DNA from: Deltaproteobacteria bacterium
GTDB taxonomy: Bacteria; Myxococcota_A; UBA9042; CAIXZC01
Direction of reading: 5' to 3'
NCBI GenBank assembly: GCA_016875215.1
Contig: VGRX01000002.1
Location: forward strand, 5,805-69,804
DNA: 64,000 nucleotides
A program made the position numbers and the translations under genes. Position 1 is the first letter of the stretch. Each line of letters starts with the position of its first letter. Under the pieces are notes generated by a model that searched no databases, was not told the origin of the DNA, and saw nothing but the letters and a program-made list of their open reading frames with translations. This document shows, piece after piece, positions 19,951-38,196 of the stretch.

Positions 19951-21354
19951 TCACACCGGCTCGGCCCCCTTGCCGAGCAGCTCCACGCTGCGGGGGCGTT
20001 CGATGCCGCGGTAGCCGAGCACCATGCCGTGTTTCTTCAGCATCTCGTCCCGGAAGACGGGATTGTAGGAGAAGTAGGTGGCCAGGCTCCAGGCATCCTT
20101 CATGTGGGTCTTGCGGTCGCAGGCCCGACGGAAGATGGAGGGGATGGAGCTGTGGCGGCGACGGGCCTCGAGGCACGCCTGGGCCAGCTCGTCGGGCGAG
20201 CAGTTGCGCGGCCGGAAGCCGGGCATGCCGAAGCGGTAGTCGTCGTGGAGCCACCACCTGCCGTCGTACAGCAGCCGCCCTTCCTTCTTCATGCGGGCAT
20301 ACAGCGGGGTGCCCGGGTACGGCATCAGGATGTTGAACGCGGAGAACGCGAACTTCTTGGACAGCGCCCAGTCGCACGTGGCCTTGACGCTTTCGGGCGT
20401 CTCGTTGTCGTAGCCCAGCAGGAACGCTGCCCACAGCATCAACCCGGACCGTCGGATCGCCTCGACCATGGGGTCGTAGGTGTCGAAGCCCAGGTTGCAG
20501 TTCTTCTGCATCTGCACCAGGTTGCGCTGGTCGAGCGACTCGAACCCCACGACCAGCCCCGAGCAGCCGCTCTCGAGCATCAGCTCCATGAACGCCGGGT
20601 CCGCGGCGAACGACAGGTCGGCCTGCCCGAACCAGCGGATCCGCATCGGCCTCAAGCGCCGGAACAGCTCCCTGGCCTGCTCCTTGCTCGCAATGAGGTT
20701 ATCGTCCACGAAGAAGACGAATCGGGCACCGTCCCGGGACAGCTCCCGGACTACCTCGTCCACGGGGCGGCAGCAGTGATGCTGGCGGTAGATGTTGCCC
20801 GTGGCGCAGTACTCGCACTGGTTCACGCACCCCCGGGAGAACTGCGTCAGCCGCACCGGCAGGTATTTTTTTGCGACGAATATGCTCCAGTCGGTGCGGA
20901 TACCGATCAGTTGGGAGGAGTGCGGGTCGGGTGCTCGCCCCCCGAAGCTCCCGACATAACGCCGCCTGAGCCGCCCTTTCTCCAGGTCGGCAAGCAGCGT
21001 TTCCCAGACCGGCTCGGCATCGCCCAGGACGACGGCATCCGCGTGCTCGAGAGATTCGTCGGGGATCAGCGTCGTGTGGAAGCCGCCCAGGACGACGGGG
21101 ATGCCCCGGTTTCGGAAGCGGTCCGCGATCTCGTAGGCCCGGCGGGCCGTGTAGATCTCGGTGTTGATGGCCACCAGGTCCATGTGCTCTTCGAACGGAA
21201 GGCGCTCGAACCGGTCGTCGTACAGGACGGTCTCGTGCTGCGGCGGCGTGATGCCTGCGAGCACGGCGAACGTCAGCGGCTCCATGCGCCCGTGGTCATC
21301 GTAAGGGGCCCCGCTGACCAGCCCCATGTTGGGCTTGATGAACACGATCTTCAT
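19951..21354 (-). CDS. B12-binding radical SAM enzyme (class B, DUF4070-type C-terminus)
   Basis: N-terminal cobalamin-binding Rossmann-like domain, CVNQCEYC (CxxxCxxC) cluster motif, and DUF4070-like C-terminal region. Start MKIVFIKPNMG has GAGG upstream. ATGA overlap with the upstream paralog. Confidence 0.85.
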   Translation of the reverse strand: MKIVFIKPNMGLVSGAPYDDHGRMEPLTFAVLAGITPPQHETVLYDDRFERLPFEEHMDLVAINTEIYTARRAYEIADRFRNRGIPVVLGGFHTTLIPDESLEHADAVVLGDAEPVWETLLADLEKGRLRRRYVGSFGGRAPDPHSSQLIGIRTDWSIFVAKKYLPVRLTQFSRGCVNQCEYCATGNIYRQHHCCRPVDEVVRELSRDGARFVFFVDDNLIASKEQARELFRRLRPMRIRWFGQADLSFAADPAFMELMLESGCSGLVVGFESLDQRNLVQMQKNCNLGFDTYDPMVEAIRRSGLMLWAAFLLGYDNETPESVKATCDWALSKKFAFSAFNILMPYPGTPLYARMKKEGRLLYDGRWWLHDDYRFGMPGFRPRNCSPDELAQACLEARRRHSSIPSIFRRACDRKTHMKDAWSLATYFSYNPVFRDEMLKKHGMVLGYRGIERPRSVELLGKGAEPV

Positions 21355-22739
21355 GACGTCGCCTCGTCGGACAGCGGGGCGGGCGGTTCCGCCTCCCCGT
21401 CGAGGGGCTCCGGAAGCCGGGGTTCCAGGCCGAGCGGCAGACCCTGCTTGGTGAGGATGTCCTGCCGTGAACCGTAGTTCACGAGCAGGTAGGTCAGCAC
21501 ATTGGACGGGCTGGCGAGGTTGGTCCGGCGGTCGAGCATCCGCCTCAGGATCGCGGGGTAGCGGTGCACCCGCTTCCGGATGCCGAACGCCCCCTCGGAG
21601 AGCTGTCGTGCGCTCATCCCGTTCGGCTCGAAGACCACGTCCCCGAAACGATATCGGGGGTCCATCCACCAGCGCTCGTACGTCAGTCGGCCCTCGGCCC
21701 GCAGCCGCCTGTACAGCCCGGTCCCCGGGAAGGGGTTCAGGTGGTTGAAGTTGACCAGGAAGAACTTCTGCTTCAGTGCGAACTCGTAGGTCCTCTCGAA
21801 CACGTCCGGGGTGTCGCCGTCATAGCCGAACACGAACGTGGCATAGATCATGATCCCCTGGTCTCGCACCTTCTCGATGCGGGTCACGTAGTCCTCGGCC
21901 CGGGTCCACCCCTTGCCCATCTGGCGGATGTTGCTCTCGTTGAGGGACTCGAGCCCGACGATGACGCACTGGCAACCGCTGCGGGCCATGAGCCGGAGAA
22001 GCTCGGGGTCGTCCACGAAGTCGAGCGACGTCTGGGCCACCCACCGCTTTCCGAGCGGGGCGATCTCGCGCAGCAGGTCCCTGGCCAGCTCGGGCCTCGC
22101 CGCCAGGTTGTCGTCCGCAAAGAAAGTCCAGCGGTCCGGCGCTGATTCCAGCTCCTCCACGACGTCCCGGAGCGGCCGGTTCCGGGGTTCCTTCGGGTAG
22201 AAGGCATGGACCGAGCAGAAGTCGCACCGGTGCCTGCATCCTCGGGCGAACTGGATGACGTTGACCGGCGCGTACCCCTTGTGGTCGAGCACGTGCGAGT
22301 CGGGCCGGCACAGCGCCAGGTCGGCCGGCTCGTCGTGGCGATACACCCGCTGCAGCTTCCCTCCGCGTAGATCGTCCACGATGCGGGGCCACAGCACCTC
22401 GGCCTCGCCGACGGCCACGCAGTCCGCGTACCGGGCTGCCTCGTCCGGACACTGCGACGGGTGGAATCCGCCCAGCACGACCCTGGCGCCCCGCTTCCGG
22501 AAGGCATGGGAGATCTCGTAGGCCCGGCGGGCCTGGAACGTGCCCACCGACAGTGCGACCAGGTCCCACGGCTCGTCGTAGGGCGGCTCCTCGAAGCGGT
22601 CGTCGAACGCCTTCACCTCGATGTCGGGCGGCGTCAGTCCGGCCAGGATGGCGAGAGCAGTCGGCCGCAGGCAGGTGAGCGACCGCTGCCGCGGCACGCC
22701 ACGCAGCCCCAGTCCCGGCAACCCCAACGCGATTCTCAC
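21351..22739 (-). CDS. B12-binding radical SAM enzyme paralog (CRHRCDFC); GTG start with GGGGAGAGG RBS, alternative ATG at 22778
   Basis: Same architecture as the downstream gene (about 40% identity by eye). An N-terminal alignment with the paralog (MKIVFIKPNMG vs (M)RIALGLPGLG) supports the GTG at 22739. Confidence 0.8.
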   Translation of the reverse strand: MRIALGLPGLGLRGVPRQRSLTCLRPTALAILAGLTPPDIEVKAFDDRFEEPPYDEPWDLVALSVGTFQARRAYEISHAFRKRGARVVLGGFHPSQCPDEAARYADCVAVGEAEVLWPRIVDDLRGGKLQRVYRHDEPADLALCRPDSHVLDHKGYAPVNVIQFARGCRHRCDFCSVHAFYPKEPRNRPLRDVVEELESAPDRWTFFADDNLAARPELARDLLREIAPLGKRWVAQTSLDFVDDPELLRLMARSGCQCVIVGLESLNESNIRQMGKGWTRAEDYVTRIEKVRDQGIMIYATFVFGYDGDTPDVFERTYEFALKQKFFLVNFNHLNPFPGTGLYRRLRAEGRLTYERWWMDPRYRFGDVVFEPNGMSARQLSEGAFGIRKRVHRYPAILRRMLDRRTNLASPSNVLTYLLVNYGSRQDILTKQGLPLGLEPRLPEPLDGEAEPPAPLSDEATS

Positions 22740-22894
22740 GACCCGCCTCTCCCCAACGAGGAACCCCCTCGGGACCATAGCCCGTCCCGCGAAGCGAGTA
22801 AAGGGGAAGCCACTGCACCCCGCCCAATCTCCTTGCAATCCGTAGCGTGCGACTCTATCATCAGCCCGCTTCGCCCGTACGATCCGGAGGGGAG

Positions 22895-23353
22895 ATGGCG
22901 ATTCCGGCAACGACCGTCGAGGTGATCCTGGAGGCAGGGGGGGATTCGAATCCCCTGGCCGTCACCGTGGCGGAGCTGCTTGGCAGGAATGCCCCCCGTT
23001 CCGGCCGCTCGGGGCCGCTGGCCGTGCTCTCGTTCGACGCGGTCGTGGAGGTCCGTGATGCCGGGGCCGACGCACGGGCCTGCACGGTGAGCTTCCAGGG
23101 CCGCCGAATCCGGGTCTACCCGTTCCCGAAGGAGCGCTGCGACGTACGGCTGAGCGTGGACCGGAGCGCCCTGCTGCGGCTTGCCTCTCTGCCGATCTGC
23201 TCCGGGAGACTGCTGCCGTGGACCCGGGCCGCTGCCGGTGCGGCCAGGCTCCTGGCGAGGCCGGGAGTCGCTTCCGGCAGCTTTCCCCGGCTGGTCCAAC
23301 TCCTGCAGGCGCTGTCCGTCGAGGAGCGTACCTGCCCGTTCGTCGGGAGGTGA
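22895..23353 (+). CDS. SCP2-like (sterol-carrier/lipid-binding fold) small protein, tentative
   Basis: About 150 aa. The pattern of short beta-hairpin blocks and a C-terminal amphipathic helix resembles SCP2 domains. GGAGGGG RBS. Divergent from the radical SAM pair. Assignment is by pattern only. Confidence 0.4.
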   Translation: MAIPATTVEVILEAGGDSNPLAVTVAELLGRNAPRSGRSGPLAVLSFDAVVEVRDAGADARACTVSFQGRRIRVYPFPKERCDVRLSVDRSALLRLASLPICSGRLLPWTRAAAGAARLLARPGVASGSFPRLVQLLQALSVEERTCPFVGR

Positions 23354-25626: not shown

Positions 25627-27210
25627 GTGAGCACGAACATGCCGCGTATCGCCCTGCTGGGTTGTGGGAAATGGGGGAGGAACCACGCCCGGGTCCTCCA
25701 CGAGATGGGTTGCCTGGCGCTGCTGTGCGACGAGCGGGCCGAGGCGTTGGAGCAGGTGAAGGCGACCTGTCCCGGCGTCCCGGCGACCACTTCGATCGAC
25801 GAGATCCTCTCGGCACGGCCGGACGGTGTCGTGGTGGCCACGCCGGCTGCCGCGCACGCGGCGCATGCCACCCGGTTGCTCGAGGCCGGCCTGCATGTCC
25901 TGGTGGAGAAGCCGCTTGCCCTGACGGTGGCTGACGGGCGGAGGCTGGTGGCACTGGCGGAGGAGCATCGGCGCGTGCTCGCTGTCGGCCATATCCTCGA
26001 GCACCACCCGGCCCGGCAGCGCATCCGGGAGCTGCTGGCCGAAGGGCGGCTCGGAGCCGTCCTGTCAGCCCGCCTGAATCGCACCGGCCTGGGGACGATC
26101 CGCTCGGTGGAGGACGTGCTGTTCAGCTTCGCACCGCATGACATCGCGTTCGCGCTGGAACTGGGCAGAGGGCTTCCCGTCACCGTCACTGCGGTCGGGT
26201 TCGACCTGTTCGGCAGGGGCATCGCGGACACCGCGGTGATCGTGCTGGGCTTTGCCGAAACAGCGGCCCGTCCCCTGTCCGTCCAGATCACGGTGAGCTG
26301 GCTCGAGCCGAAGAAGGAGCACCGGGCCCTCCTGGTCGGGACCGAGGGGATGCTGGAGTGGAACGACACGCCGGAGGGGCGGGGGATCACGCTGACCCGG
26401 ACGGTGACGGAGCCGGGCACGCCGCCGACGGTCAAGGTCGTGGACAGAGAGAGCATCGACATCCCCGAGGGCGAGCCGCTGCGCCGGGAGCTCGATGCAT
26501 TCGTTCGGGCCATCCGGGAGAACGACCTGGCGGGCCTCTCGGACGGGTCTTCCGGCCTGGACGTACTTGCCGTGCTCGAAGCCTGTGCCCGAAGTGCGAA
26601 GCAGGGGAGGAGGGTCCGGATGGAAGAGGTGACGCGCAACTGGTTCGCGCACGAGTCCGCTGTGGTCCACCCGACCGCAGAGGTCGGCGAGGGGACGAGC
26701 ATCTGGCACTTCTGCCACGTGATGCAGGGCACGCACCTCGGTCGAGACGTCACCATGGGGCAGAACTGCTTCATCGCCAAGGGCGTCAGCATCGGCGACG
26801 GGTGCCGGCTGCAGAACAACATCTCGGTCTACGAAGGGGTGATCCTGGAGGAGGACGTGTTCGTGGGGCCGTCCGCCGTGTTCACCAACGTACGTTTTCC
26901 ACGAGCCTTCGTGTCCCGCAAGTCGGAGTACGAGACCACCCGGGTCTGCAAGGGGGCCACCATCGGCGCCAATGCCACCATCGTGTGCGGCGTGACCATC
27001 GGGGCGCACGCGTTCATCGCGGCCGGCGCGGTCGTGACCAAGGACGTGCCGCCCTACACCCTGGTGGAAGGGGTCCCCGCGGTCAAGTCGCGGCACATGT
27101 GCTCGTGCGGCGAGCGCCTCCCCCGCTCCGACGGCGACGTCCTCACCTGCCGCCGCTGCAAGGCAGCGTACCGCAAGACCCCATCCGGCGTGGCGCCGGA
27201 GAGAAAGTAG
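25627..27210 (+). CDS. Fusion protein: Gfo/Idh/MocA-family NAD(P) sugar dehydrogenase (WbpB-like) + left-handed beta-helix hexapeptide N-acetyltransferase (WbpD/PglD-like) + C-terminal Cys4 ribbon
   Basis: N-terminal RIALLGCGKWG Rossmann motif and Gfo/Idh/MocA C-terminal domain. Residues ~340-500 match the WbpD-type acetyltransferase (IWHFCHV..GQNCFI.. hexapeptide repeats ..GANATIVCGVTIG). Tail CSCG...CRRC. GTG start with AAGGAG SD. Confidence 0.8.
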   Translation: MSTNMPRIALLGCGKWGRNHARVLHEMGCLALLCDERAEALEQVKATCPGVPATTSIDEILSARPDGVVVATPAAAHAAHATRLLEAGLHVLVEKPLALTVADGRRLVALAEEHRRVLAVGHILEHHPARQRIRELLAEGRLGAVLSARLNRTGLGTIRSVEDVLFSFAPHDIAFALELGRGLPVTVTAVGFDLFGRGIADTAVIVLGFAETAARPLSVQITVSWLEPKKEHRALLVGTEGMLEWNDTPEGRGITLTRTVTEPGTPPTVKVVDRESIDIPEGEPLRRELDAFVRAIRENDLAGLSDGSSGLDVLAVLEACARSAKQGRRVRMEEVTRNWFAHESAVVHPTAEVGEGTSIWHFCHVMQGTHLGRDVTMGQNCFIAKGVSIGDGCRLQNNISVYEGVILEEDVFVGPSAVFTNVRFPRAFVSRKSEYETTRVCKGATIGANATIVCGVTIGAHAFIAAGAVVTKDVPPYTLVEGVPAVKSRHMCSCGERLPRSDGDVLTCRRCKAAYRKTPSGVAPERK

Positions 27211-27308
27211 ACAGACCGGGAGTGTGAGTGCGGGAGCATCGGCCCCCGCTCCTCGCTGGACGCACGTCCCGCTCCGGAGTAGCATGATGACAAGTCGGAG
27301 GTAACTTC

Positions 27309-28496
27309 ATGGTCAGCAACAACGGGGTGCTTTCGGGTATCGGGCGGGCTTCCAACACAGCGTTGCGGCTTCTGGCGGAAGGCGCATTGGTCCTGGTCCT
27401 GGCATCGCTCGCACTTTCCGCCTGGGGATGCGGGAACGGTTCGGACAGGAAGGTGGTAGATCCGGCCTACGACGTATCGGGCGACGGCGGGCCGCTGGCG
27501 CAGTGCTACCACATCGGGGAGAAATGGCCGCAGAGCTACCCGCCGATGACGGAGGAGAATGCATACCAGCTCGCCCTGAAGTGGAGCCAATGCGGTGCCA
27601 TGGTCGGGACCAAGCTGGCGTGGTTCTGGCAGTGTGCCATGGGCACGTGTCTGCCCTATGAGGTGCCCGATGTGGACCCGCCCTCCATGGAGTGCATCCT
27701 GGCGGCGAAGGACTGTGACGAGGTGCGTTGCTGCTGGGGGGTGAACTCGGACGCGAGCTGCAATCCGGACACGTTCGAGGGCGGATGCGATGGCAGCGTC
27801 CACGTTTCGTGCTGGCCTCTGGCGGATGGGCGCCACATGGTCAGGATGTGGGATTGTGCGTGGTCCTCGGGGAACCCCCAGTGCCTGCTGGACACCGACG
27901 GGCATCGAACTTGCGGCAGCGGCACTTGCCCGGACGGTGGGGTGCCGGCCACGTGTGAAGGGAACGTCCGGGTCTCCTGTGAAAAGGGGGTAGAGCGCCG
28001 GGTGGACTGTGCAGAGCGGGGCCGCATCTGCGCCGTTGTGGCCACCGGTGATGGACAGGAAGCAGCCTGTGTGCTGAAGAAGGGATGCCTGGTCCCGTAC
28101 TGCGACGGCACCGTGTTCGTCATGTGCAAGGGCGGGGCCGAGGTCGCACGATACAACTGCGACTGGTACGGCGAGGGGTTCACCTGCACGAATCCGACCA
28201 AGGACGGGAGCGGCGACTGGACTGGTGGATGCTTGCCGCCGCCCGACAAGGCGTGCGATCCGGACAAAGACGAGGACTACTGCGAGGGAGCCGTCGCACA
28301 CTACTGCACGGGCCATGGTGCGTGGGCCGAGTTCGACTGTGCGGGCTTCGTGGATGGCGCCTGCCGGAAGTACTGCCCGCTGGATTTCGGCGGCGGTGAG
28401 TGCGACCCCGGAGACGACACTTGCACCCCCGTTCCTCCCTGCGACCCCACCGACCCGACGCAGGGCAACTCGGTCGGATGTGCAGAGGGGAAGTAA
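27309..28496 (+). CDS. Cys-rich lipoprotein of unknown function
   Basis: LSAWGC lipobox, more than 40 Cys residues. GGAGG RBS. Confidence 0.6.
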   Translation: MVSNNGVLSGIGRASNTALRLLAEGALVLVLASLALSAWGCGNGSDRKVVDPAYDVSGDGGPLAQCYHIGEKWPQSYPPMTEENAYQLALKWSQCGAMVGTKLAWFWQCAMGTCLPYEVPDVDPPSMECILAAKDCDEVRCCWGVNSDASCNPDTFEGGCDGSVHVSCWPLADGRHMVRMWDCAWSSGNPQCLLDTDGHRTCGSGTCPDGGVPATCEGNVRVSCEKGVERRVDCAERGRICAVVATGDGQEAACVLKKGCLVPYCDGTVFVMCKGGAEVARYNCDWYGEGFTCTNPTKDGSGDWTGGCLPPPDKACDPDKDEDYCEGAVAHYCTGHGAWAEFDCAGFVDGACRKYCPLDFGGGECDPGDDTCTPVPPCDPTDPTQGNSVGCAEGK

Positions 28497-28506
28497 GGGC
28501 CCGGGG

Positions 28507-30810
28507 CTACTTCCCCTCGATCCACGCGGCGGCCCCCTGGTCCAGGGAGTTCTCGATGATCGCTCGGAAGCCGGCGTAGTCGGGGTGGATGCCGTCCGGG
28601 ATGTGCTCGACGGGCGAGGGATAGGTGAACCAGCCCCCCGGGAAGGGGTCGTATCCCGGGGCCGGGCCCGGGGGGGGCACGACGCCCGGACCGTACGCGG
28701 GGAATCCGAACCCCGGGCACGGGAACGGGAAGTGCGGCGTGTCCCCGAACGTGTACTGCATGATGCCTATGTTGTGCGCGTAGATCATGTCCGGGACAGA
28801 GGCCGCCACCTGGCGTGCCCGGCCGCACAGGTCCACCAGCCCGAGGTTGAACTTCACCCGCTCGAAGCCGGGGAAGCCGTTGCCCAGTGCCTCGATCATC
28901 TCGAAATGGAGGTAGTCATACCCGACCATCAGGATCTTGATGTCGGGCTGCTTGGCCTTGACCAGGGCCACAAAGGTAGCCAGGTCCCACTGGATGAGCG
29001 TCATGGTGATGAACCACTCCAGCCCTCCCATGAGCCCGAGCCCGCTCTTGGCTGCCCCCAGGTAGTCGTTCCCGGTCAGCGTGAAGAACAGGATGTCCGC
29101 CTTGGGTTCCATGCTCATGCTTGTGAAGAGTGCATCCATGAGGGACGGGTTTGAGACCCAGTCCGAGACCTTGGAGCCGGGCTTGGAAGTCAACTCCCAG
29201 CTCACGGTGACTTCCTCGTACCCTCGGGCGACGAGGGCATCCTTGAGGGGGATGATGAGGCCGGAGGACCAACTGTCCCCCGCGAGCACGACCCGGTCGA
29301 CCGCGAGGCACTGCGGGTTCTTGCCCGGGTTGCACTTGCCGCCGCCGCAGTAGTCCCCCTCGGTGCACGGGTCGTTGTCGTCGCACGGGACGTCCAGCGG
29401 CGTGAACACGCACCCCGTTGCCGGATCGCAGGTGTCCTGCGTGCAGAAGTTGGAATCGCCGCAGACGATCGGCTGGCCGATGCACTTGCCCATGGCGCAG
29501 ATGTCGTCCTTGGTGCAGGCATCATGGTCGTAGCAGGGCGTCCCGGTCAGCGGCTGGTTGGAGCACCCGGTGAGCGGGTTGCAGGAATCCTGAGTGCAAT
29601 CGTCGCCGTCGTCGCAGCTTACCGGCTTGCCCGCCTTGCAGGCCCCCTGGTAGCACTTGTCGCTTGCCGTGCATGCGTTGCCGTCGCTGCACGGGAATCC
29701 CGGCGGCTGCGTGTGGATGCACCCCCCCTCGAACGTGCAGGAATCCAGCGTGCACTGGTTCCCATCGCTGCAGCTTGCGCTCTGCCCCATGCATGCGCCT
29801 TCCACGCACAGGTCGTTCTCGGTGCACTCGTTTCCATCGTTACACATGGTGCCGTCCGCGGGCGGATGCTGGCAGCCGGCCAGAGGGTCGCACACGTCCT
29901 GGGTGCACGGGTTGCCGTCGGTGCAGGCCGTAAGCGTACCGGTGCACTGACCCGCGGCGCAGTGGTCATCCCCGGTGCAGACCGAGCCGTCGTCGCACGG
30001 CTTCCCGGTGAGCTGGGTGAACACGCAGCCGACCGCGGGGTCGCACGCATCGCTGGTGCAGATGTTGCCGTCCTCGCAGGTCACCGGCTCTCCGATGCAG
30101 AGCCCCTGGTCGCACGTGTCCAGCGAAGTGCACGCGTCGTCATCGCTGCACGGCTGGCCCGTGCCCGGGGAATGCGTGCACCCGGCAAGCGGATCGCAGC
30201 CGTCCACCGTGCAGCCGTCACCGTCGTCGCAGAGCACGGCCTGTCCGTAGCATTTCCCGGACAGGCACTGGTCCGACCCGGTGCAGGCGTTGCCGTCGTC
30301 GCATGGGTTGCCGGTGAGCGGGACCGGGGCGCATCCCGTGTCCGGCTGGCACGCTACGGTGGTGCAGGGATCCTCGTCCTCTTCGCATTCGACGGGATCT
30401 CCGATGCACTCTCCCTTGGCGCAGGCATCGCTCAGGGTGCAGGCATTGCCGTCGTCGCAGGCGGTCCCGTCGTCCCGGTCCTGCTCCTCGCACCTTCCTT
30501 CGATGCAGGCCCACCGGCGGCAGGGCCCCAGCACCTGCCCTGCGGCAGCGCATCCCTCGTCGCCGACGCACAGCTTGCCGTCGAAGGTCAGCTCCGGCAG
30601 GAACGGCTCGTCCCGCCCGTCCACCCGGACGAGATCGGGTTCGACCCAGCCGCCGTCCGCGTCTCCGCCCGCCTGGCGCACGTCACCGGCCGGTCCCCGC
30701 AGGTCGGCACGGGGTCCCACGTCGGAAGCCCCGCCGGTCCCCGTCCCCCCGCACGCAACCAGCAGCGCTGGGATCCAAGCCGCAAAGAGGAATGGCAGGC
30801 GCAAACTCAT
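28507..30810 (-). CDS. Lipoprotein: N-terminal DGNxCTxDxC Cys-repeat array + C-terminal SGNH/GDSL-type hydrolase domain
   Basis: Internal start MSLRLPFLFAAWIPALLVACGG. About 11 Cys repeat modules. VVLAGDSWSSG (GDS block I), GNDY, and DGIHP (catalytic DxxH). Confidence 0.75.
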   Translation of the reverse strand: MSLRLPFLFAAWIPALLVACGGTGTGGASDVGPRADLRGPAGDVRQAGGDADGGWVEPDLVRVDGRDEPFLPELTFDGKLCVGDEGCAAAGQVLGPCRRWACIEGRCEEQDRDDGTACDDGNACTLSDACAKGECIGDPVECEEDEDPCTTVACQPDTGCAPVPLTGNPCDDGNACTGSDQCLSGKCYGQAVLCDDGDGCTVDGCDPLAGCTHSPGTGQPCSDDDACTSLDTCDQGLCIGEPVTCEDGNICTSDACDPAVGCVFTQLTGKPCDDGSVCTGDDHCAAGQCTGTLTACTDGNPCTQDVCDPLAGCQHPPADGTMCNDGNECTENDLCVEGACMGQSASCSDGNQCTLDSCTFEGGCIHTQPPGFPCSDGNACTASDKCYQGACKAGKPVSCDDGDDCTQDSCNPLTGCSNQPLTGTPCYDHDACTKDDICAMGKCIGQPIVCGDSNFCTQDTCDPATGCVFTPLDVPCDDNDPCTEGDYCGGGKCNPGKNPQCLAVDRVVLAGDSWSSGLIIPLKDALVARGYEEVTVSWELTSKPGSKVSDWVSNPSLMDALFTSMSMEPKADILFFTLTGNDYLGAAKSGLGLMGGLEWFITMTLIQWDLATFVALVKAKQPDIKILMVGYDYLHFEMIEALGNGFPGFERVKFNLGLVDLCGRARQVAASVPDMIYAHNIGIMQYTFGDTPHFPFPCPGFGFPAYGPGVVPPPGPAPGYDPFPGGWFTYPSPVEHIPDGIHPDYAGFRAIIENSLDQGAAAWIEGK

Positions 30811-33521
30811 CGGACATCTCCACGAATCGCCACGGACCGGCGACGCCCGGCGGACACTCGCATCAACACGGCCAGGGCGGCCAGCAGAAGCACGATCCCC
30901 CTGCCCTTGGCGGAGCCCGTCGCCGCACACCCGCCAGAGGCTTTCGGCTGCGTCACCACATCCTCCACCGGTCCGGCCACCTCGGGCTGGATGTCGATGG
31001 ACTCGTCGCTTTCCACCGCGGTCGGTGCGAGGCGGCAGGTCCCTTCCAGGCAGGTACCGGAGAAGCCGTTCAGGAAGCAGTAGTCGCCGTCCGGGAGCGG
31101 CTCGTACAGGCACTTCCCCGCGACCGGGTCGCAAGTCCCCGCGTAGCAGGGGCTGTCAGGTGCAGGGCACTTCAGGGGAGCGGTCACACACTCGCCCGTC
31201 ATGCAGTAGTCGAGGCCGGTGCACGGGTCACCGTCGTCGCACGGGCCGAAGTCGTCGATGGGGGTCGAAACGCACCCCTTGGCCGGGTCGCATTCCACCT
31301 TCACGCACGGACCATCCTGCTCGTCCGGCTTGCACAGGAGCGGCTTTCCCGGACGGCACCGCGAGAGCACGCACGTCTCGATGCCGTCGCACGGGTTGCC
31401 GTCGTCGCAGTCGGAATCCTCGTCGCACCCCGGCATCTGGAGGCTCGGATCGCCGTACAGGTTGAACTCGAGGCGGACCTTGAAGGTCCACGGCTGTACG
31501 CCGAGCCCCAGCGTCCCCATCGCGTAGTGGAAAGCCTCGGCAATCGGGCGCTTCTCCACGGCGGCCGCATGCGTGAAGTAGACACCCAGGGTGAATGCCC
31601 CCGGCGTGAACGGAGAAGGAACCCAGTCCTCATCCTGTCCCGGAGTCAGCCCCATCGTGATCCGGGTCGACGCCACGTTGGCAATGGACGCGTGCTGGAG
31701 CAGCGAGTGCGTGAGGTTTCCATGCTCCTCCGGGCAGGCGGTCAGGCACGACCCCTGGAAGACGATCGGGGGATAGTCATCCGTCCCGACCTTGTGGAAC
31801 AGGATGTTGATGAATGCCGGCTCCTCGGTCTCCCCCTGCTGCGGCAGTCCGTCCTCGTTGGCATCCACGTACCAGATGTCCCGGCAGGCGAGGTCGAAGT
31901 TGCCGTGGGCGCTCCATGTGACGGCTCCGTACCCCTTGTTCCAGTACTCGGGCATCTTCGACTCGTCGAGGAAATCGTCACCCGGATACGTGGAGGTCAG
32001 GTTGCCCGCCCACTCCCCGAGCACCGTATGCCCGTTGCCGTAGACATCCAGCGACTTCTCGATCAGGAACTTCGACACCAGGCTCCCGTCCACCCATCCC
32101 CCGTCCGGGAAGGTGATCATCGGGCTGGGAAGCAGCACCCGGTTGTGCCACGGCAGCGGCTCCGACTGTTCGTACGCGATGATCCTCTCGAGGATGCCGT
32201 CGCCGTAGAACGGCTGCTTCCCGAAATGGGGGATCCGCCCCACCAGCAGCTCCGGTGCCAGGTCGACCCCGTCGAGCCGGTCCCCGCTCCGGTCTGCGCC
32301 GCCATCGAATCCCCCCTCGGCTCCGCTGCCGCCCGCTTCGCCTTCGCCCTGGAATTCCTCGGGGATCTCCATGTAGTCCTCGAGCTCGCACGGCATCTCG
32401 TCGCCGTCGGGGTTCCAGTTCCCCGTGAGGTCCGCGAAGTACATGTCGGTCGCCACGTGCGGGTAGTCGAGGATCTCCTCGTATCCGAACGAGGGATAAC
32501 AGAGCTTCATCGGAATCCCGAGCGGGTCGTGCGGGTCAGGCGACCCGAGCAGCACCAGGTATTTGAAGCCGGCCTCCTGGTAGTGCTTCTGGAGCCACGC
32601 CCGCAGGATGTCGGGCTGTTCCTCGGGTGCGGGCTCCACCGCTTCCATCTCCTCGTCGATCTGCTCGAGTGTAACGAGCAGCGGCGTGTAGCCCTGGGAC
32701 TTCTTGAAGTCGATGAAGGTGGATAGCATCTTGCTGGTCGACGCAAACTGCTCCCGGGTTACGATCACATAGTCGGTCATCCCGTCTTCCCGGGGGGCCG
32801 GGGCGTACCATTTCGCAACGTCCGAAGCGTTGGTTGCAAGCCGGGTCATCCGGTCGGGCAGGAAGTGGCCGCGGTCCGGGCGGGGGGCTCCGCTCCGGTC
32901 GACCTGCACCCGCACCGAGAAGCGGCCGCAACGCTCCCAATGACCGTCCTGCACTCGGAGAAGCCGCAGCAGGAGCGGGAGCAGCAGCGCATCCCCCTCG
33001 TGGAGCAGAGGGGAGGTGAAGAACGGCGATTCCCCGGCTCGAGACGTGACCGGCCGGGCAGGAAAGGAGGAGTCCGATTGCGATGCCGCTTGCGATTCCG
33101 ATTGCGATGGCGAATCCGACGCCGCCTCCGACTTCGCAATGTGGTCCGGGATCCGCCCATGCCCCGAGGCTTCGGCGCGGCGGGCGGGCAGAGGCATGGG
33201 GCGGCCGTCGAACAGGGAGATCAGCGTGGCATCGTCCGCGACCGGGGGCTTGGCGGGGTGGCAGTCGGATGGCTCCACCGTCACGACGGGACGGCCCCGG
33301 GTATCGGGGGGCAGGAGCAGGAGGAGGGGATAGCCCTCGCCCGCACCCAGAGCAGCCGGGAGGCGATGGATTCGGTTCCAGACCGCGCCGGGGGCCGAAT
33401 CGCCGGCTGCCGCGGTCCCAAGGTCGATCCGGACCACGATCTCCTCGGCCCGGCCCGTCGTGCCGGCCAGTGCCAGCAGCAACCCGACCAACGCACCGAC
33501 CGCCCCACGCGCGCGCATCAC
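30807..33521 (-). CDS. Gingipain-like cysteine peptidase (family C25) with Cys-rich modules and C-terminal MYXO-CTERM
   Basis: Signal peptide. C25 catalytic region (WSAHGNFD His, FQGSCLTA Cys). C-terminus ASGGCAATGSAKGRGIVLLLAALAVLMRVSAGRRR. ATGA overlap with the downstream SGNH gene. Confidence 0.75.
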   Translation of the reverse strand: MMRARGAVGALVGLLLALAGTTGRAEEIVVRIDLGTAAAGDSAPGAVWNRIHRLPAALGAGEGYPLLLLLPPDTRGRPVVTVEPSDCHPAKPPVADDATLISLFDGRPMPLPARRAEASGHGRIPDHIAKSEAASDSPSQSESQAASQSDSSFPARPVTSRAGESPFFTSPLLHEGDALLLPLLLRLLRVQDGHWERCGRFSVRVQVDRSGAPRPDRGHFLPDRMTRLATNASDVAKWYAPAPREDGMTDYVIVTREQFASTSKMLSTFIDFKKSQGYTPLLVTLEQIDEEMEAVEPAPEEQPDILRAWLQKHYQEAGFKYLVLLGSPDPHDPLGIPMKLCYPSFGYEEILDYPHVATDMYFADLTGNWNPDGDEMPCELEDYMEIPEEFQGEGEAGGSGAEGGFDGGADRSGDRLDGVDLAPELLVGRIPHFGKQPFYGDGILERIIAYEQSEPLPWHNRVLLPSPMITFPDGGWVDGSLVSKFLIEKSLDVYGNGHTVLGEWAGNLTSTYPGDDFLDESKMPEYWNKGYGAVTWSAHGNFDLACRDIWYVDANEDGLPQQGETEEPAFINILFHKVGTDDYPPIVFQGSCLTACPEEHGNLTHSLLQHASIANVASTRITMGLTPGQDEDWVPSPFTPGAFTLGVYFTHAAAVEKRPIAEAFHYAMGTLGLGVQPWTFKVRLEFNLYGDPSLQMPGCDEDSDCDDGNPCDGIETCVLSRCRPGKPLLCKPDEQDGPCVKVECDPAKGCVSTPIDDFGPCDDGDPCTGLDYCMTGECVTAPLKCPAPDSPCYAGTCDPVAGKCLYEPLPDGDYCFLNGFSGTCLEGTCRLAPTAVESDESIDIQPEVAGPVEDVVTQPKASGGCAATGSAKGRGIVLLLAALAVLMRVSAGRRRSVAIRGDVR

Positions 33522-33679
33522 CGCACCTCCGATGGGGCGGAGTGTACCACCGGGGTTCGAGAGTTGCCAGGGGGGCGACCCACCCTGATCCAGGGATTCC
33601 CCGCACAGGCAGGCTCATCACCCTCTGGACACCGTTGATGGTGGATTTGGGCCCAGAGCGAGGCGGACGATCTGGGGGT

Positions 33680-34135
33680 CTACTCCGGGTCCGCCGGTCT
33701 TTCCCCGTAGCCGAGCTGCGCAGCGATGAAATGGTCGGCCCCTGCGAGGTCGAAGTCGGAGACCCTCTTCGGCTCGGCCCAGGCCAGCTCGGAATGGACA
33801 GTGGGATTGAACTTCCCGGTCCACCGGTAGACAGCCAACGCGATGAGGCGGATGCTGAACGTGGGATAGTGGTGGGTCGCTTCGGCCAACTGCTCAGCTA
33901 TCTCGGCCTGGATGTGGAATTCCTCGAAGAGCTCGCGGGCAAGGGCCTGTGGTGGTGTCTCGCCCGGTTCGACCTTGCCACCCGGAAACTCCCACTTGCC
34001 GGCATGCCGCTGCCCCGGGCCGCGGCGGGCCACCAGGATGCGGCCGTCCCAGTGCATGACGGCCGCCACGACGGTGATGGGCGTGCGACCTGACCTGGCC
34101 TGCTCCCCCGACGAGTCCTTCCCCTTCCGCTCCAT
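33680..34135 (-). CDS. NUDIX hydrolase (MutT-like)
   Basis: Nudix box GKWEFPGGKVEPGETPPQALARELFEEFHI, about 150 aa. Confidence 0.8.
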   Translation of the reverse strand: MERKGKDSSGEQARSGRTPITVVAAVMHWDGRILVARRGPGQRHAGKWEFPGGKVEPGETPPQALARELFEEFHIQAEIAEQLAEATHHYPTFSIRLIALAVYRWTGKFNPTVHSELAWAEPKRVSDFDLAGADHFIAAQLGYGERPADPE

Positions 34136-34292
34136 GGCCTTCCCCCCCACACTCACAGGATGGCGACCGCAGTATAGTCCTCTCCGCCGTCTTCGCCAAC
34201 TTAACATTCCTCCCGGGGTTGTGCCCACCCGTGTGATTCTGGTATGCTGCGCCCCGGCGACCGACGACTGCCGGGTCGTCAGGGGAGGGGCA

Positions 34293-35390
34293 ATGATGAG
34301 AGTCGCACTTGTTGTGGTCGTGGCGCTGGCTGCCATGGCCTGCTCGAACAGTGGGAAGTCACCTGCGGACATCTCTGCAACGGAGACCCCGGGCGGCGAC
34401 GTGAGATTGCCGACCGGCGACGCTCAGCCGCAAGTCGATCTCGTGACGGAAGAGACGCTCGACGTCCCGAGCGGTCCCGAGATCGTCCTTCCTCCGGGCT
34501 ACCTGGAGTTCTGCCTGTCCGACGCAGACTGTGCGACCTGGGATCTCAAGTGCTTCTTCTCGAAGCCGGCCGACCCGGATGCCATCTGCTCGATCGCATG
34601 CACATCGAGCACAGAGTGTCCCGAGCCGATGGTGTGCAAGCGAAAGGGGGAGTTCAAGGCGTGCATGCTCGCCAGCTACTGCGACGGCTGCGACAAGGAT
34701 TCCCAGTGCGGTGAGAACGGGAAATGCGTCGCGGACGAGGATGGCCAGAAGTTCTGCACCCATACGTGCAAGAAGGACGATGCCGAATCGTGCGGCGGGG
34801 CCAACTTCTGCAAGAAGGTCGGACTGGGGCTGGAGGACTACTACTGCTACCCCATGTTCGGCACATGCAAGGGGGATGGAACCCTCTGCACCCCCTGCCA
34901 GGAAGATGGTGATTGTCTCAAAGGGCACGAGTGCCACGAGAACTCCACGACCCACGAGATGTACTGCGCCAAGGTCTGCCAGACCGACATCGACTGCCCC
35001 GAGAAGGGATACGGCTGCTACGAGGTTTCCGGCGAAGAGCTCCCGCTGTGCACCATGGAAGTGAACGGGAGCCCGGTCGAAACGTGCTACCAGGGGAACA
35101 AGGGCTTCTGTGAGCCGTGCATGCGGGATTATGAATGTCAAAGCGGGATATGTTACAATTACCCGGTTGCAAAAAAATATTTTTGCAGCTTTCCTTGTGA
35201 CAAGACGAAGTACGCAAGCGGCTGTCCGTCCGGGCTCTTCTGTGCTCCAAACCACGGAGAGGGTGCGGCCGTGAACCCCGACGTCTGCATTCCCCCGACC
35301 GCGTTCGGCTGCCAGGGATTCCTGAACTGCGTGGGTGTCGATTGTCCCAAGGGGGAGAAATGCATCGATGGGTTCTGCCAACCCAAGTGA
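34293..35390 (+). CDS. Cys-rich lipoprotein of unknown function
   Basis: MMRVALVVVVALAAMACS lipobox, strong GGGGAGGGG RBS, more than 40 Cys. Confidence 0.6.
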   Translation: MMRVALVVVVALAAMACSNSGKSPADISATETPGGDVRLPTGDAQPQVDLVTEETLDVPSGPEIVLPPGYLEFCLSDADCATWDLKCFFSKPADPDAICSIACTSSTECPEPMVCKRKGEFKACMLASYCDGCDKDSQCGENGKCVADEDGQKFCTHTCKKDDAESCGGANFCKKVGLGLEDYYCYPMFGTCKGDGTLCTPCQEDGDCLKGHECHENSTTHEMYCAKVCQTDIDCPEKGYGCYEVSGEELPLCTMEVNGSPVETCYQGNKGFCEPCMRDYECQSGICYNYPVAKKYFCSFPCDKTKYASGCPSGLFCAPNHGEGAAVNPDVCIPPTAFGCQGFLNCVGVDCPKGEKCIDGFCQPK

Positions 35391-35536: not shown

Positions 35537-36055
35537 ATGCGAGCAGTCAGCCTGGTAGCGTTCGTGGTCGTTCTGGCGGTGATTGGGACCACCTCGGCCT
35601 CGGTGGTTCGGCCGTTCACGTTGCAGGAGCTCTACTCGACGGCCCAGCTCGTCGTGGTGGGTGAGGTGACCGGCCAGACGACCTTCTGGAACGAGGCCCA
35701 CGACACGATCTACACGGAGTACCTGGTGAAGCCCGAGCGGGTGGTCAAAGGCGAGGCGCCGGCCGAGGTGCGGCTCCGGCTGATGGGGGGAAGCCTGGAC
35801 GGCAAGACGCTCACCGTCCCGGGGAATGCCCCGGTCGAGGAGGGAGAGAGGGTCCTGCTCGCCCTGCGGGACCAGGGGTCCTTCCAGACCCTGGTCGGAA
35901 TGTCCCAGGGCAAGTGGAGCTTGCGCAGTGTGGACGGGAAGGATCGGGCATGGCGAGGGCCGAGGCTGCAGGCCTTCGAGCCGCTCCGTGACGGCGAGGT
36001 GCTGCTCGACGATCTGCTGGACGACATGCAGCGGAACCCGGGGAGGATGCCATGA
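35537..36055 (+). CDS. Secreted protein of unknown function, translationally coupled (ATGA) to the downstream metalloprotease
   Basis: Signal peptide MRAVSLVAFVVVLAVIGTTSASV. GGAGG RBS 5 nt upstream. The stop overlaps the start of the 36052 gene. Confidence 0.5.
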   Translation: MRAVSLVAFVVVLAVIGTTSASVVRPFTLQELYSTAQLVVVGEVTGQTTFWNEAHDTIYTEYLVKPERVVKGEAPAEVRLRLMGGSLDGKTLTVPGNAPVEEGERVLLALRDQGSFQTLVGMSQGKWSLRSVDGKDRAWRGPRLQAFEPLRDGEVLLDDLLDDMQRNPGRMP

Positions 36056-38196
36056 AGACGCGTCCTCTCCCCGGGCACCTGGCAGCAGCGCTCACGCTGT
36101 TCTCGCTCCTCTCGACGGGCTCTCCGGCCGTGGCGTTCACCATCAACTCCGACAACGGCGAGAAGATCACCTGGAAGCAGAACACCATCGCCTGGTACCT
36201 CCATCCCAGCGGAAGCCAGGACATGCCGTTCGAGGAATTCAAGGGAGCCATCCAGGCCGCGTTCAACACCTGGGACAACCTCCCCTGCTTCAGCAAGAGC
36301 TTCAGCTTCGGCGGAACCAAGAGCTCGGATCCCCAGGACGGGATCTACGTCATGGTCAAGGAGAGCAACTGGGATCCCACGGTCGGGGACGCAGCGGCCT
36401 ACTCGCAGAACTGGACCGACTGGAGCGGCAACATCTCGCACAACGTCATCGTGTTCAACGGCGTGGACCTGACCTGGACCACGACCGAGGCCATGGACTA
36501 CTTCTCGGAGAAGACGGACGTCCAGGGGGTCGGCACCCACGAGCTGGGGCACAGCATCGGCCTCGACCACTCCCGCTGGCGCGCAGCCACCATGTTCTTC
36601 TCGGGCAGCAGTGCGGAGCTGCGCACCCTCGACCAGGACGACAAGGACGGCGTCTGCTATCTCTACTCCGCTTTCACCAGCGGCAAGCCGTGCGACTCCT
36701 GCACGTCGAACACGAACTGCAGCGGCGCCCCGTGTCTCAACGTCGGAGGGCTCGGCTTCTGTGGAAAGAACTGCTCGTCCGACGCCAACTGCCCCGAGAC
36801 CTTCACCTGCGAGCAGCTCAACAACGGCAGCTACTCGTGCTATCCCTTCAACAACAACTGTGCGCAGCAGGGGGCCAACATCCCCATGGGCCAGTATTGC
36901 TACGGCCACGAGACGTGCAAGAGCGGGCTCGTCTGCCTGGTGCTCCCCGACACGGCCTACTGCTCGAAGGAGTGCACCTCCAATGCTCAGTGCGGGAGTC
37001 TGAAGTGCGTATCCGGGCTCTGCATGCAGGGTGGGAACACGCCGCTGGGCGGCTCGTGCCAGATGCACCCCGACTGCGAGAGCGGCCTGTGCCTCGGCAT
37101 CTCCGAGAACGAGGGCGTCTGCACGTCGCAGTGCAAGGACACGGTCAACTGCCCGAACGGGTTCCTGTGCGCCGGCGGGTATTGCATGAAGGCGGGGGAC
37201 GGCAAGTACGGGACCGCGTGCACCAAGGACATCGACTGCCAGACCGGCCAGTGCCTCTCCATTGGCGGGCTGGACAAGATCTGCTCGAAGAGCTGCACCA
37301 CAAAGGGCGACTGCCCAGGGTCCAACCCGTGCACGTTCTCGGTGTGCATCCCTCCCGGAAGCGGGCTGTTCGGAGCGACCTGCGCGAAGCACACCGACTG
37401 CGCCAGCGGCTTCTGCGCCGGCATGAGCATGAAGCAGTGCAGCATCGCCTGCAAGACCGATGCCGACTGCCCGGCCGGGGCCGGCTGCGTCAGCGGCGGC
37501 TACTGCGTGAAGAAGAAGCCGCCGACGGGATCCTGCAATTCCAAGGCGGACTGCAAGCCGGGGGAATTCTGCAGGCAGGCGAGCGCTGACGTGATGGGCA
37601 TGTGCACGCCGGAATGCAACCCGTTCGGCGATACCGGCTGCGCCGACGGCAGCGTATGCCAGTGGGTCTACCAGCCCTTCGAAGACGTGGTGCACGGCGA
37701 GTGCGTCCCGTCCAACGACGGCGGTGACGAGGGGGCCCTGTGCCTCGCTCCCAATCCGCCCTGTATCCAGGACCTGGTCTGCATGAACGTCGGCGGGACC
37801 GGAGCGAAATGCTACCGGGACTGCAACTCCGCCACCGGCTTCGGCTGCGGAGGGGACCACTCCTGCCTCGCGCTGAACCTGTCCTCCGATCCCTACCACG
37901 GCGTCTGCGTCTGCGGTGCCCCCTCCTGCATGGAGGTCCCGGACGAGGATGTGACCGGGCCGGACGATGATGTCACCGAGGAGCCCGAGCCACCGACTCC
38001 CGGCAAAGACGTCAAGGCGGGCAAGGACACGTCCGGCAGTACCCCCAACCCCCCGGTGGGCGTAGAGCCCGGCACTGGCGGAGGTGGCTGCTCGCTTGCT
38101 GGACGCACTCCGACCGGTGCCTCACCGCTTGTCCCCATCCTCCTGCTGGCAGCGGCGCTCTACGCGTTGGTCGTCACCCGTCGGCGCAGGGTGTGA
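36052..38196 (+). CDS. Matrixin/M10-like zinc metalloprotease with Cys-rich repeat stalk and C-terminal MYXO-CTERM
   Basis: HELGHSIGLDH (HExxHxxGxxH) zinc site. Repeated C-x-x-x-x-C-x-S-G-x-C modules. C-terminus GGGCSLAGRTP...ILLLAAALYALVVTRRRRV. Confidence 0.8.
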   Translation: MKTRPLPGHLAAALTLFSLLSTGSPAVAFTINSDNGEKITWKQNTIAWYLHPSGSQDMPFEEFKGAIQAAFNTWDNLPCFSKSFSFGGTKSSDPQDGIYVMVKESNWDPTVGDAAAYSQNWTDWSGNISHNVIVFNGVDLTWTTTEAMDYFSEKTDVQGVGTHELGHSIGLDHSRWRAATMFFSGSSAELRTLDQDDKDGVCYLYSAFTSGKPCDSCTSNTNCSGAPCLNVGGLGFCGKNCSSDANCPETFTCEQLNNGSYSCYPFNNNCAQQGANIPMGQYCYGHETCKSGLVCLVLPDTAYCSKECTSNAQCGSLKCVSGLCMQGGNTPLGGSCQMHPDCESGLCLGISENEGVCTSQCKDTVNCPNGFLCAGGYCMKAGDGKYGTACTKDIDCQTGQCLSIGGLDKICSKSCTTKGDCPGSNPCTFSVCIPPGSGLFGATCAKHTDCASGFCAGMSMKQCSIACKTDADCPAGAGCVSGGYCVKKKPPTGSCNSKADCKPGEFCRQASADVMGMCTPECNPFGDTGCADGSVCQWVYQPFEDVVHGECVPSNDGGDEGALCLAPNPPCIQDLVCMNVGGTGAKCYRDCNSATGFGCGGDHSCLALNLSSDPYHGVCVCGAPSCMEVPDEDVTGPDDDVTEEPEPPTPGKDVKAGKDTSGSTPNPPVGVEPGTGGGGCSLAGRTPTGASPLVPILLLAAALYALVVTRRRRV

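Follow-up and report, generated by a model that had tools for sequence, protein, structure and literature searches.

A gingipain-family peptidase and an SGNH-fold lipoprotein on homologous cysteine-rich stalks, predicted from a two-gene locus of an uncultured myxococcotal bacterium

The locus described here comprises two overlapping minus-strand genes, A and B, in a 64,000-nucleotide stretch of a Deltaproteobacteria bacterium assembly (GenBank GCA_016875215.1, contig VGRX01000002.1, positions 5,805 to 69,804 of the forward strand; hereafter the window, with position 1 as its first letter). Its closest described counterparts are surface proteins of Myxococcus xanthus, the gingipains RgpB and Kgp, and SGNH/GDSL hydrolases. 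The MYXO-CTERM signal, as defined by Guo, Haft and Wall, consists of an invariant Cys, a transmembrane (TM) helix and an Arg cluster (PMC11980579). In TraA, Cys-rich repeats have been proposed to form a rigid stalk ahead of the MYXO-CTERM tail (PMC3325183), where the tail is processed by the myxosortase MrtX and the protein is delivered to the surface via the type II secretion system (T2SS) (PMC3325183, PMC11980579). M. xanthus has 35 MYXO-CTERM proteins, the majority of which are predicted to be adhesins or hydrolases (PMC11980579); MepA and the MXAN_2677/2678 metalloprotease family are examples of myxosortase-dependent surface hydrolases with such tails.

Protein A, likewise a hydrolase by prediction, resembles TraA and MXAN_4924 of M. 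xanthus in combining an N-terminal functional domain, Cys-rich repeats and a Cys/TM/Arg tail. It differs in that the head of TraA is a PA14 lectin-like domain whereas that of A is a protease, that the repeats of A and B belong to the Dicty_CTDC type rather than TIGR04201, and that the tail of A scores below the TIGR03901 cut-off. With RgpB and Kgp, protein A shares the Pfam family, the predicted fold, a His-Gly plus Cys dyad at the aligned positions His211 and Cys244, a GDPS motif closing the catalytic domain, and an N-terminal domain of about 200 amino acids (aa) ahead of it; gingipains are secreted and retained at the surface via a C-terminal sorting signal that is swapped for a lipid-type anchor, as is predicted for A. 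In contrast, identity in structural alignments is 11-14%, A has neither immunoglobulin (Ig)-like nor haemagglutinin domains, a Cys-rich stalk and MYXO-CTERM-like tail stand where gingipains have the C-terminal domain of the type IX secretion system (T9SS), and the N-terminal domain is not matched by the Pfam family Propeptide_C25. The hosts differ as well, being an uncultured environmental member of the Myxococcota for A and the Bacteroidota pathogen Porphyromonas gingivalis for gingipains. Protein B shares with SGNH/GDSL hydrolases (Geobacillus GDSL esterase 7e16, EstL5, Axe2) a flavodoxin-like fold and blocks I, II, III and V; unlike these, it falls below the Pfam threshold, has a loop of ~45 aa rich in Pro and Gly before block V, and has its catalytic domain C-terminal to a 420-aa stalk rich in Cys, with a lipid anchor at the N-terminus. 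A full-text search on C25, gingipain and Myxococc was empty, and no paper describing a C25 peptidase as MYXO-CTERM cargo was found.

We favor, as the probable reading, a two-gene transcription unit of an uncultured member of the Myxococcota, encoding two envelope hydrolases built on one plan of catalytic head, disulfide-rich stalk and lipid anchor. The two proteins are predicted to be anchored at opposite polypeptide ends, C-terminal in A and N-terminal in B. Each is a new, unstudied member of a known enzyme family, set on a known, TraA-like display plan, and the locus does not constitute a new system. The genes and their junction are as follows.

30807..33518, minus strand: gene A, a 903-aa C25-family cysteine peptidase precursor, 100% identical to NCBI FJ109_00615
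28507..30810, minus strand: gene B, a 767-aa lipoprotein consisting of a stalk and an SGNH hydrolase domain (predicted)
30807..30810, minus strand: ATGA, the overlap of gene A stop and gene B start, read in the sequence

A third-position GC filter picked two long minus-strand open reading frames (ORFs) from this DNA of ~66% G+C, with raw limits of 28507..31134 and 30807..33521. Gene A most likely starts at ATG 33518, where a GGAGGTG ribosome-binding site lies upstream, rather than at GTG 33521, where the raw ORF opens 3 bp earlier. Translation from this start yields, at 100% identity, the deposited 903-aa 'MAG: hypothetical protein FJ109_00615 [Deltaproteobacteria bacterium]' (MAG, metagenome-assembled genome), and gene calling on a Logan contig chose this start as well. 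For gene B the start is ATG 30810, far inside its raw ORF, with GGAG 9 nt 5' of the ATG. Inspection of the junction (...CGATGAGT...) places the gene A stop at TGA 30809..30807, with gene A ending in codons GTC CGA TGA and gene B opening with ATG AGT. The ATGA overlap suggests translational coupling, such that proteins A and B would be made together. An earlier reading of the letters alone (the original prediction) had already located the two ORFs and their overlap, and erred by just the 3 bp between GTG 33521 and ATG 33518.

Protein A divides into the following segments.

33450..33518, minus strand: signal peptide, residues 1-23 (MRARGAVGALVGLLLALAGTTGRA|EE), read from the sequence; residues 2-18 are helical in the model
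32772..33449, minus strand: beta-sandwich N-terminal domain, residues 24-249, from the AlphaFold2 model; occupies the position of the gingipain prodomain
31428..32771, minus strand: C25 catalytic domain, residues 250-697, from Pfam PF01364 and Foldseek
31905..31907, minus strand: codon of the predicted catalytic His538 in the His-Gly motif; invariant, aligns with RgpB His211
31746..31748, minus strand: codon of the predicted catalytic Cys591 (..IVFQGSC..); invariant, aligns with RgpB Cys244 (..FIFDVAC..)
31026..31427, minus strand: Cys-rich stalk, residues 698-831, with 20 Cys in about 2.5 double repeats of CxDGNxCTxxDxC type
30810..31025, minus strand: disordered linker and MYXO-CTERM-like tail, residues 832-903, with GGC864, the helix GIVLLLAALAVLM and RRR892-894

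By sequence, protein A is a member of peptidase family C25 (MEROPS C25, clan CD), with His538 and Cys591 as its predicted catalytic dyad. The Pfam family Peptidase_C25 (PF01364) matches residues 250-695 over all of its profile positions (1-374 of 374) at an expectation value (E) of 4e-25 and 89.2 bits against a cut-off of 23; a disordered acidic and Gly-containing insert interrupts the catalytic domain at residues 385-416. A database search recovered 26 relatives, comprising 18 apparent orthologues (43-71% identity), each with PF01364 as its sole annotation, and more distant C25 proteins. His538-Gly539 and Cys591 are invariant in a 23-sequence alignment of these homologues, and the family profile aligns its W-x-A-H-G motif to Y-T-G-H211-G of RgpB. 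A broader profile of the catalytic half, for which 48 homologues from bacteria and archaea (23-31% identity) were used, retains both columns as invariant and aligns continuously to RgpB 103-288, where His538 pairs with His211 (GHG) and Cys591 with Cys244 (AC). The original prediction had named a gingipain-like C25 protease and had offered loss of the catalytic His or Cys upon proper alignment as the result that would count against it; the family match and the retention of both residues bear that assignment out.

The predicted structure agrees with the profile evidence. The AlphaFold2 model of protein A has a mean predicted local distance difference test (pLDDT) score of 78, rising to about 90 in the catalytic domain, and gingipain R and gingipain K are its only strong matches in the PDB (Foldseek, E 2.8e-15 to 2e-12), where RgpB 1cvr gives E 2.8e-15 with a TM-score on the target of 0.64 and Kgp 6i9a/4rbm gives E 2e-13. 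Further members of clan CD (MALT1, separase, CHAT) come far down the list. Single-sequence phmmer searches of the PDB returned no useful match for A, B or the stalk of B, and profiles were therefore needed; NCBIfam models applied to whole proteins A and B returned nothing at E<=0.01. Asp163, the S1 specificity residue of RgpB, aligns near a conserved VD477GS motif of A, although the alignment there is too uncertain for Arg or Lys specificity to be claimed. C25 homologues at 25-30% identity are widespread among uncultured bacteria and archaea.

The N-terminal beta-sandwich of protein A is probably a prodomain, judging by its position and by analogy with gingipains. It diverges faster than the catalytic domain, with 59-68% versus 83-89% identity to the related contigs L002 and L007. 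Residues 112-161 (33036-33185) form a disordered insert rich in Ser, Ala, Gln and Asp, part of which is encoded by a DNA tandem repeat of 12 or 18 bp at 33074-33125. This insert is present in this MAG and missing from the orthologues at 70-71% identity, such that the region spans 233 aa versus about 187-192 aa.

Behind the catalytic domain, the stalk of A is homologous to that of B (BLASTP E 6e-16, 35-43% identity), which sustains the proposal in the original prediction that the two proteins have Cys-rich repeats in common. The Pfam family Dicty_CTDC (PF00526) reaches 17-24.8 bits on the A stalk, under its cut-off of 27. The C-terminus that follows reads '...GGC864AATGSAKGRGIVLLLAALAVLMRVSAGRRRSVAIRGDVR', where a Cys motif, a TM helix and an Arg cluster complete, together with the N-terminal signal peptide, the tripartite MYXO-CTERM architecture. 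Across the whole A family this Cys/hydrophobic/Arg pattern is kept, and G863 and C864 are conserved in at least 90% of sequences. Four orthologues were tested at the aligned tail position, and three of them pass MYXO-CTERM-type models: P0006 (26 bits) and P0022 (20.4) exceed the TIGR03901 cut-off of 20, P0019 (18.2) does not, and P0004 passes TIGR03382 with 19.2 against a cut-off of 15.85. Because the architecture is conserved family-wide and orthologues pass the models, we describe the tail of A as a divergent MYXO-CTERM-type tail by sequence, for which membership by curated score is formally lacking in this copy. The MYXO-CTERM tag of the original prediction is upheld in its Cys/TM/Arg architecture and in the three passing orthologues, and not in the score of the tail itself. 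Pfam identified no T9SS C-terminal domain, Por_Secre_tail or Ig domain in A.

Protein B has the reverse arrangement, with its anchor at the N-terminus.

30751..30810, minus strand: lipoprotein signal peptide, residues 1-20, with lipobox L-V-A-C20 and Gly at residue +2, read from the sequence
29308..30570, minus strand: Cys-rich stalk, residues 81-501, from Dicty_CTDC and repeat dissection
28510..29307, minus strand: SGNH-fold hydrolase domain, residues 502-767, from the AlphaFold2 fold, motifs and relatives

The N-terminus of B reads, by inspection, MSLRLPFLFAAWIPALLVAC20GG, and equivalent lipoboxes occur in its relatives, that of L007 included. A Gly/Asp-rich linker of about 60 aa connects the lipobox to the stalk, which contains 66 Cys in about 8 double repeats of 51 aa, where alternating half-repeats of 24-28 aa hold 4 Cys each. 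Dicty_CTDC matches this stalk at E 4e-39 and 132.4 bits against the cut-off of 27. No near-identical DNA repeats were found in the B stalk, as a DNA tandem-repeat search showed only the Ser-rich insert of A; the stalk repeats are invisible at the DNA level because they are too diverged. The myxobacterial TraA repeat TIGR04201 in NCBIfam, which Pathak et al. pointed out to resemble PF00526 (PMC3325183), has no match in A or B.

The C-terminal domain of B is predicted to be an SGNH hydrolase, by its modeled fold, its motifs and its Pfam-matching relatives. The AlphaFold2 model of this domain has a pLDDT of 90.2 and gives 75 PDB matches in Foldseek at E<=1e-3; the 50 of these that were listed are all of SGNH/GDSL type, with esterases, lipases and platelet-activating factor acetylhydrolase among them, and the best are the GDSL esterases/lipases 7e16 (E 8e-8), 6nkd and 8ik1. 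Motif residues are Ser513 (GDSW), Gly545, Asn581 (GND), and Asp739 and His742 (DGIH). The GDSW, Gly, GND and DGIHP elements are kept in 12 homologues (13-sequence alignment), and a 36-sequence alignment shows G511 and D582 to be invariant and D512, S513, W514, G545 and H742 to be conserved in at least 90% of sequences. An exhaustive profile search with the domain retrieved 736 representatives at 50% identity, of which 148 reach E<=1e-30; among 36 sampled relatives, Lipase_GDSL_2 is matched in 20 (E<=1e-3) and Lipase_GDSL in 7. A conserved Pro/Gly-rich loop of about 45 aa before block V (VPxPGxAPxYxPFPGG....PSP, ~690-737) serves as a subfamily signature. Relatives mount this type of domain on acidic low-complexity linkers behind a lipobox, on Ig-like or PKD modules, on T9SS tails, and likewise on cohesin and pectate-lyase-like modules, a variety of display modules which suggests that the B-type catalytic domain is generally a displayed extracellular enzyme. 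The SGNH lipoprotein of the original prediction is thus retained on the strength of the lipobox, fold, motif blocks and relatives, with a Pfam score of its own that is sub-threshold.

A working model for both proteins draws on TraA and the gingipains. Sec would export A and B. The C-terminal helix would retain A in the inner membrane, Cys864 would be lipidated, a myxosortase (an MrtX-type CPBP protease) would cut the tail and the T2SS would move A to the cell surface, as for TraA. The stalk of about 130 aa would then present the protease, which would become active once the N-terminal domain has been cut away, as happens in gingipains. Protein B would be acylated on Cys20, with its stalk of about 420 aa holding the SGNH head away from the membrane. 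By analogy with these systems we infer how the proteins are sorted and lipidated and what the N-terminal domain of A does; that A and B are active enzymes, or share a target, is likewise inferred. The sequence itself shows the gene structure and overlap, the family and fold assignments, the retained catalytic residues, the kinship of the two stalks and the reach of the synteny.

The flanks of the pair fit a two-gene transcription unit, and co-expression of A and B is likely from this layout. Two features lie in these flanks.

33541..33569, minus strand: promoter-like block 5' of gene A, consisting of TGGCAA, 17 nt, TACACT, with hexamers assigned by inspection; GGAGGTG follows
28485..28518, no strand assigned: perfect 11-bp inverted repeat, GAGGGGAAGTA / TACTTCCCCTC, with a 12-nt loop, spanning both convergent stops

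A NUDIX gene lies 5' of gene A on the same strand, separated by a 161-bp spacer, and the TGGCAA/TACACT block is the sole conserved stretch of this spacer among the window, L002 and L007. The block is a plausible candidate promoter of the A-B unit, though one that a consensus scan did not report. That scan, which covered 28000-34600, found no terminator-like site, hence none between genes A and B, and its lone promoter-like match (34171-34199) falls inside the NUDIX gene. Nothing was returned by Rfam over 27000-35000 at E<=0.1. At the other end, a convergent gene (27309..28496) ends 10 bp from the gene B stop, and each arm of the inverted repeat covers the last codons and stop of one convergent gene, both proteins ending in ..EGK*. 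This repeat may act as a shared hairpin terminator, one that lacks a T-run. Co-transcription, which the original prediction had assumed, meets nothing contrary here: the 4-bp overlap, the stretch free of terminator-like sites and the footprint upstream of A all agree with it.

The pair is kept in close relatives, in genomes titled uncultured Myxococcales or Deltaproteobacteria MAGs. The same-population contig L001 retains it with the 4-bp overlap, as do L002 and L003, where A is 71% and B 83-84% identical. Housekeeping proteins (PlsB, GFO and NUDIX) provide a baseline of 79-89% identity to L002 and L007. Relative to this baseline, the C25 domain is level at 83-89%, the SGNH domain lies at or above it at 90-96%, and the stalks lie slightly under it at 75-81%. 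These identities are those of purifying selection on both enzymes, as judged from sequence. The SGNH domain (28510-29307) is 96% identical to L002 12074-12874, where the housekeeping proteins reach 85-89%; this value indicates either unusually strong constraint or recent exchange of the segment. Downstream of B in L002 (12992-15695) and L003 (5018-7721), two toxin-antitoxin pairs flank a 400-aa Cys-rich gene, with a HigB-like/HTH_3 pair before it and an RHH/PIN pair after it; neither pair occurs in the matching stretch of the window and L001.

Several results weigh against the proposed unit of two anchored hydrolases. For anchoring and processing, TIGR03901 gives the tail of A 14.4 bits with positions 2-33 of 34 aligned, 9 additional residues follow the Arg cluster, and neither myxosortase (CPBP) nor T2SS genes were found among the scanned ORFs, which cover part of the window. 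For the domain assignments, the SGNH domain of B scores E 0.12 and 13.3 bits on Lipase_GDSL_2 (PF13472), against a cut-off of 32.9, with nothing from NCBIfam, and the prodomain assignment of A is weak: Pfam found no Propeptide_C25 (PF08126) match in A, hhalign against the PF08126 region of homologue P0021 is collinear with E 0.012 and a probability of 3.5%, Foldseek comparison with the Kgp and RgpB prodomains (5mun, 4ief_A) is not significant at E 0.2-0.4, and a hidden Markov model of the domain finds nothing in the PDB at E<=10. For the pairing itself, the L007 pair (A 70%, B 81% identical) has a 37-bp gap in place of the overlap; A orthologues at 43-48% identity have no B gene in their different neighbourhoods; and no C25 domain lies within 6 kb on each side of the full-length stalk-SGNH genes L087 and L090 (55-60% identity) or of the shorter, domain-only B homologues L088 and L089 (34-38% identity).

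These last observations also favor the best of the alternatives, whose chance we place not far short of even, namely that A and B are independent surface hydrolases with unrelated substrates, co-expressed by accident of a recent, lineage-specific synteny. Just three closely related genomes, at about 70% identity, have the pairing, and its disappearance beyond this clade leaves functional coupling of A and B without comparative support; the region is also rich in secreted Cys-rich proteins and hydrolases anyway. On the other side, adjacency and order of A and B persist in all three clade genomes despite the toxin-antitoxin insertions just downstream in L002, the two stalks are of the same repeat type, and an ATGA overlap as a rule means coupled translation. 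As to the gap in L007, 'TCCCATGAG' occurs there twice (8570-8625), where the first copy gives the stop of A and the second the start of B, such that a short duplication appears to have turned the ATGA overlap into the 37-bp spacer. The 'distinctive pairing' of the original prediction does not survive this distribution, and the role on prey envelopes that it envisaged is unsupported, as distant orthologues of A and B stand alone. A general extracellular degradative or nutrient-scavenging role is most likely for the two proteins.

A further alternative concerns the substrate of B, which could be a carbohydrate or peptidoglycan O-acetyl esterase or O-acyltransferase and not a lipid-acting lipase or esterase; we regard this as a credible minority view. 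Its fold matches include acetyl-xylan esterases (Axe2, AlAXEase, CE3), a polyvinyl-alcohol esterase and PatB, a peptidoglycan O-acetyltransferase, and the Ig-like, PKD, cohesin and pectate-lyase-like modules of its relatives typify polysaccharide-active surface enzymes. The top three fold matches are nevertheless GDSL esterases/lipases, the matches to acetyl-xylan esterases, PatB and polyvinyl-alcohol esterase being about 10- to 200-fold weaker in E-value, and B has no carbohydrate-binding module. Since identity to the listed solved structures is 9-16%, we assign B to no SGNH subfamily.

A bolder version of the two-hydrolase unit would make A and B a mirror-image pair, in which the homologous stalks associate side by side and join the protease and esterase heads as a 'surface degradosome' that attacks lipoproteins or acyl-proteins in the envelopes of other cells. 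We think this very unlikely; if true, side-by-side stalks would build multi-enzyme complexes on a Gram-negative surface in a manner not described before. The idea that A is instead a sortase-like transpeptidase or processing enzyme acting on envelope proteins such as B, comparable to the C25 protein PorU of type IX secretion, draws on weak matches of orthologues to the NCBIfam model for the T9SS sortase PorU (14-21 bits, where the cut-off is 420), on PorU 6za2 at E 0.11 in a profile search and on B as an obvious co-expressed candidate substrate, but was rejected as the principal reading and is scarcely probable, since these matches are far sub-threshold and gingipains R and K match A far better by profile and fold, a T9SS C-terminal domain is absent from both A and B, the CPBP protease MrtX already accounts for MYXO-CTERM processing (PMC11980579), and most A orthologues have no B partner.

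Under the favored reading of two surface-anchored hydrolases, protein A belongs to a conserved C25 clade in uncultured Myxococcota, outside the Bacteroidota, with about 18 orthologues at 43-71% identity. This clade appears to use a MYXO-CTERM-type route and not a T9SS signal, so that the likely cargo list of myxosortase would gain a cysteine protease, and one catalytic module would be combined with a second, different system of surface sorting. Protein B represents a divergent SGNH subfamily that current Pfam and NCBIfam models miss in this copy. The value of the locus lies in better annotation and in two candidate surface enzymes; the protease-esterase pairing is too narrow in distribution to argue for a new system, and it opens no long-standing question.

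Neighbouring genes encode further Cys-rich proteins of similar build. Upstream of the pair, 36052-38196 (plus strand) encodes a 714-aa M10 matrixin metalloprotease. It has a signal peptide, about 450 aa rich in Cys (DUF7107-like) and a tail of GGGGC, TM helix and RRRRV, a layout that matches protein A in its order of enzyme, Cys-rich region and sorting tail. For this tail JDVT-CTERM, and not MYXO-CTERM, is the best-scoring model (17.7 bits, cut-off 27), and the protein bears a weak resemblance to the myxosortase-dependent MXAN_2677/2678 family (63 bits, cut-off 250). Two lipoprotein-like Cys-rich proteins of no Pfam family are encoded on the plus strand, one of about 363 aa (34299-35390, ..LAAMAC) and one of 395 aa (27309-28496, ..SAWGC), the latter convergent with gene B. 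By these predictions, lipid-anchored proteins rich in disulfides evidently decorate the surface of the organism, and the presence of such neighbours renders the sorting proposed for A more credible.

Other genes of the window are also of note. An ORF at 35537-36055 (plus strand) overlaps the start of the M10 gene by 4 bp. At 19951-22961 (minus strand) lie two adjacent ORFs, both of them for B12-binding radical SAM proteins; nearby are a HEAT-repeat protein and, at 25627-27210, a fused GFO/IDH/MocA oxidoreductase-hexapeptide transferase.

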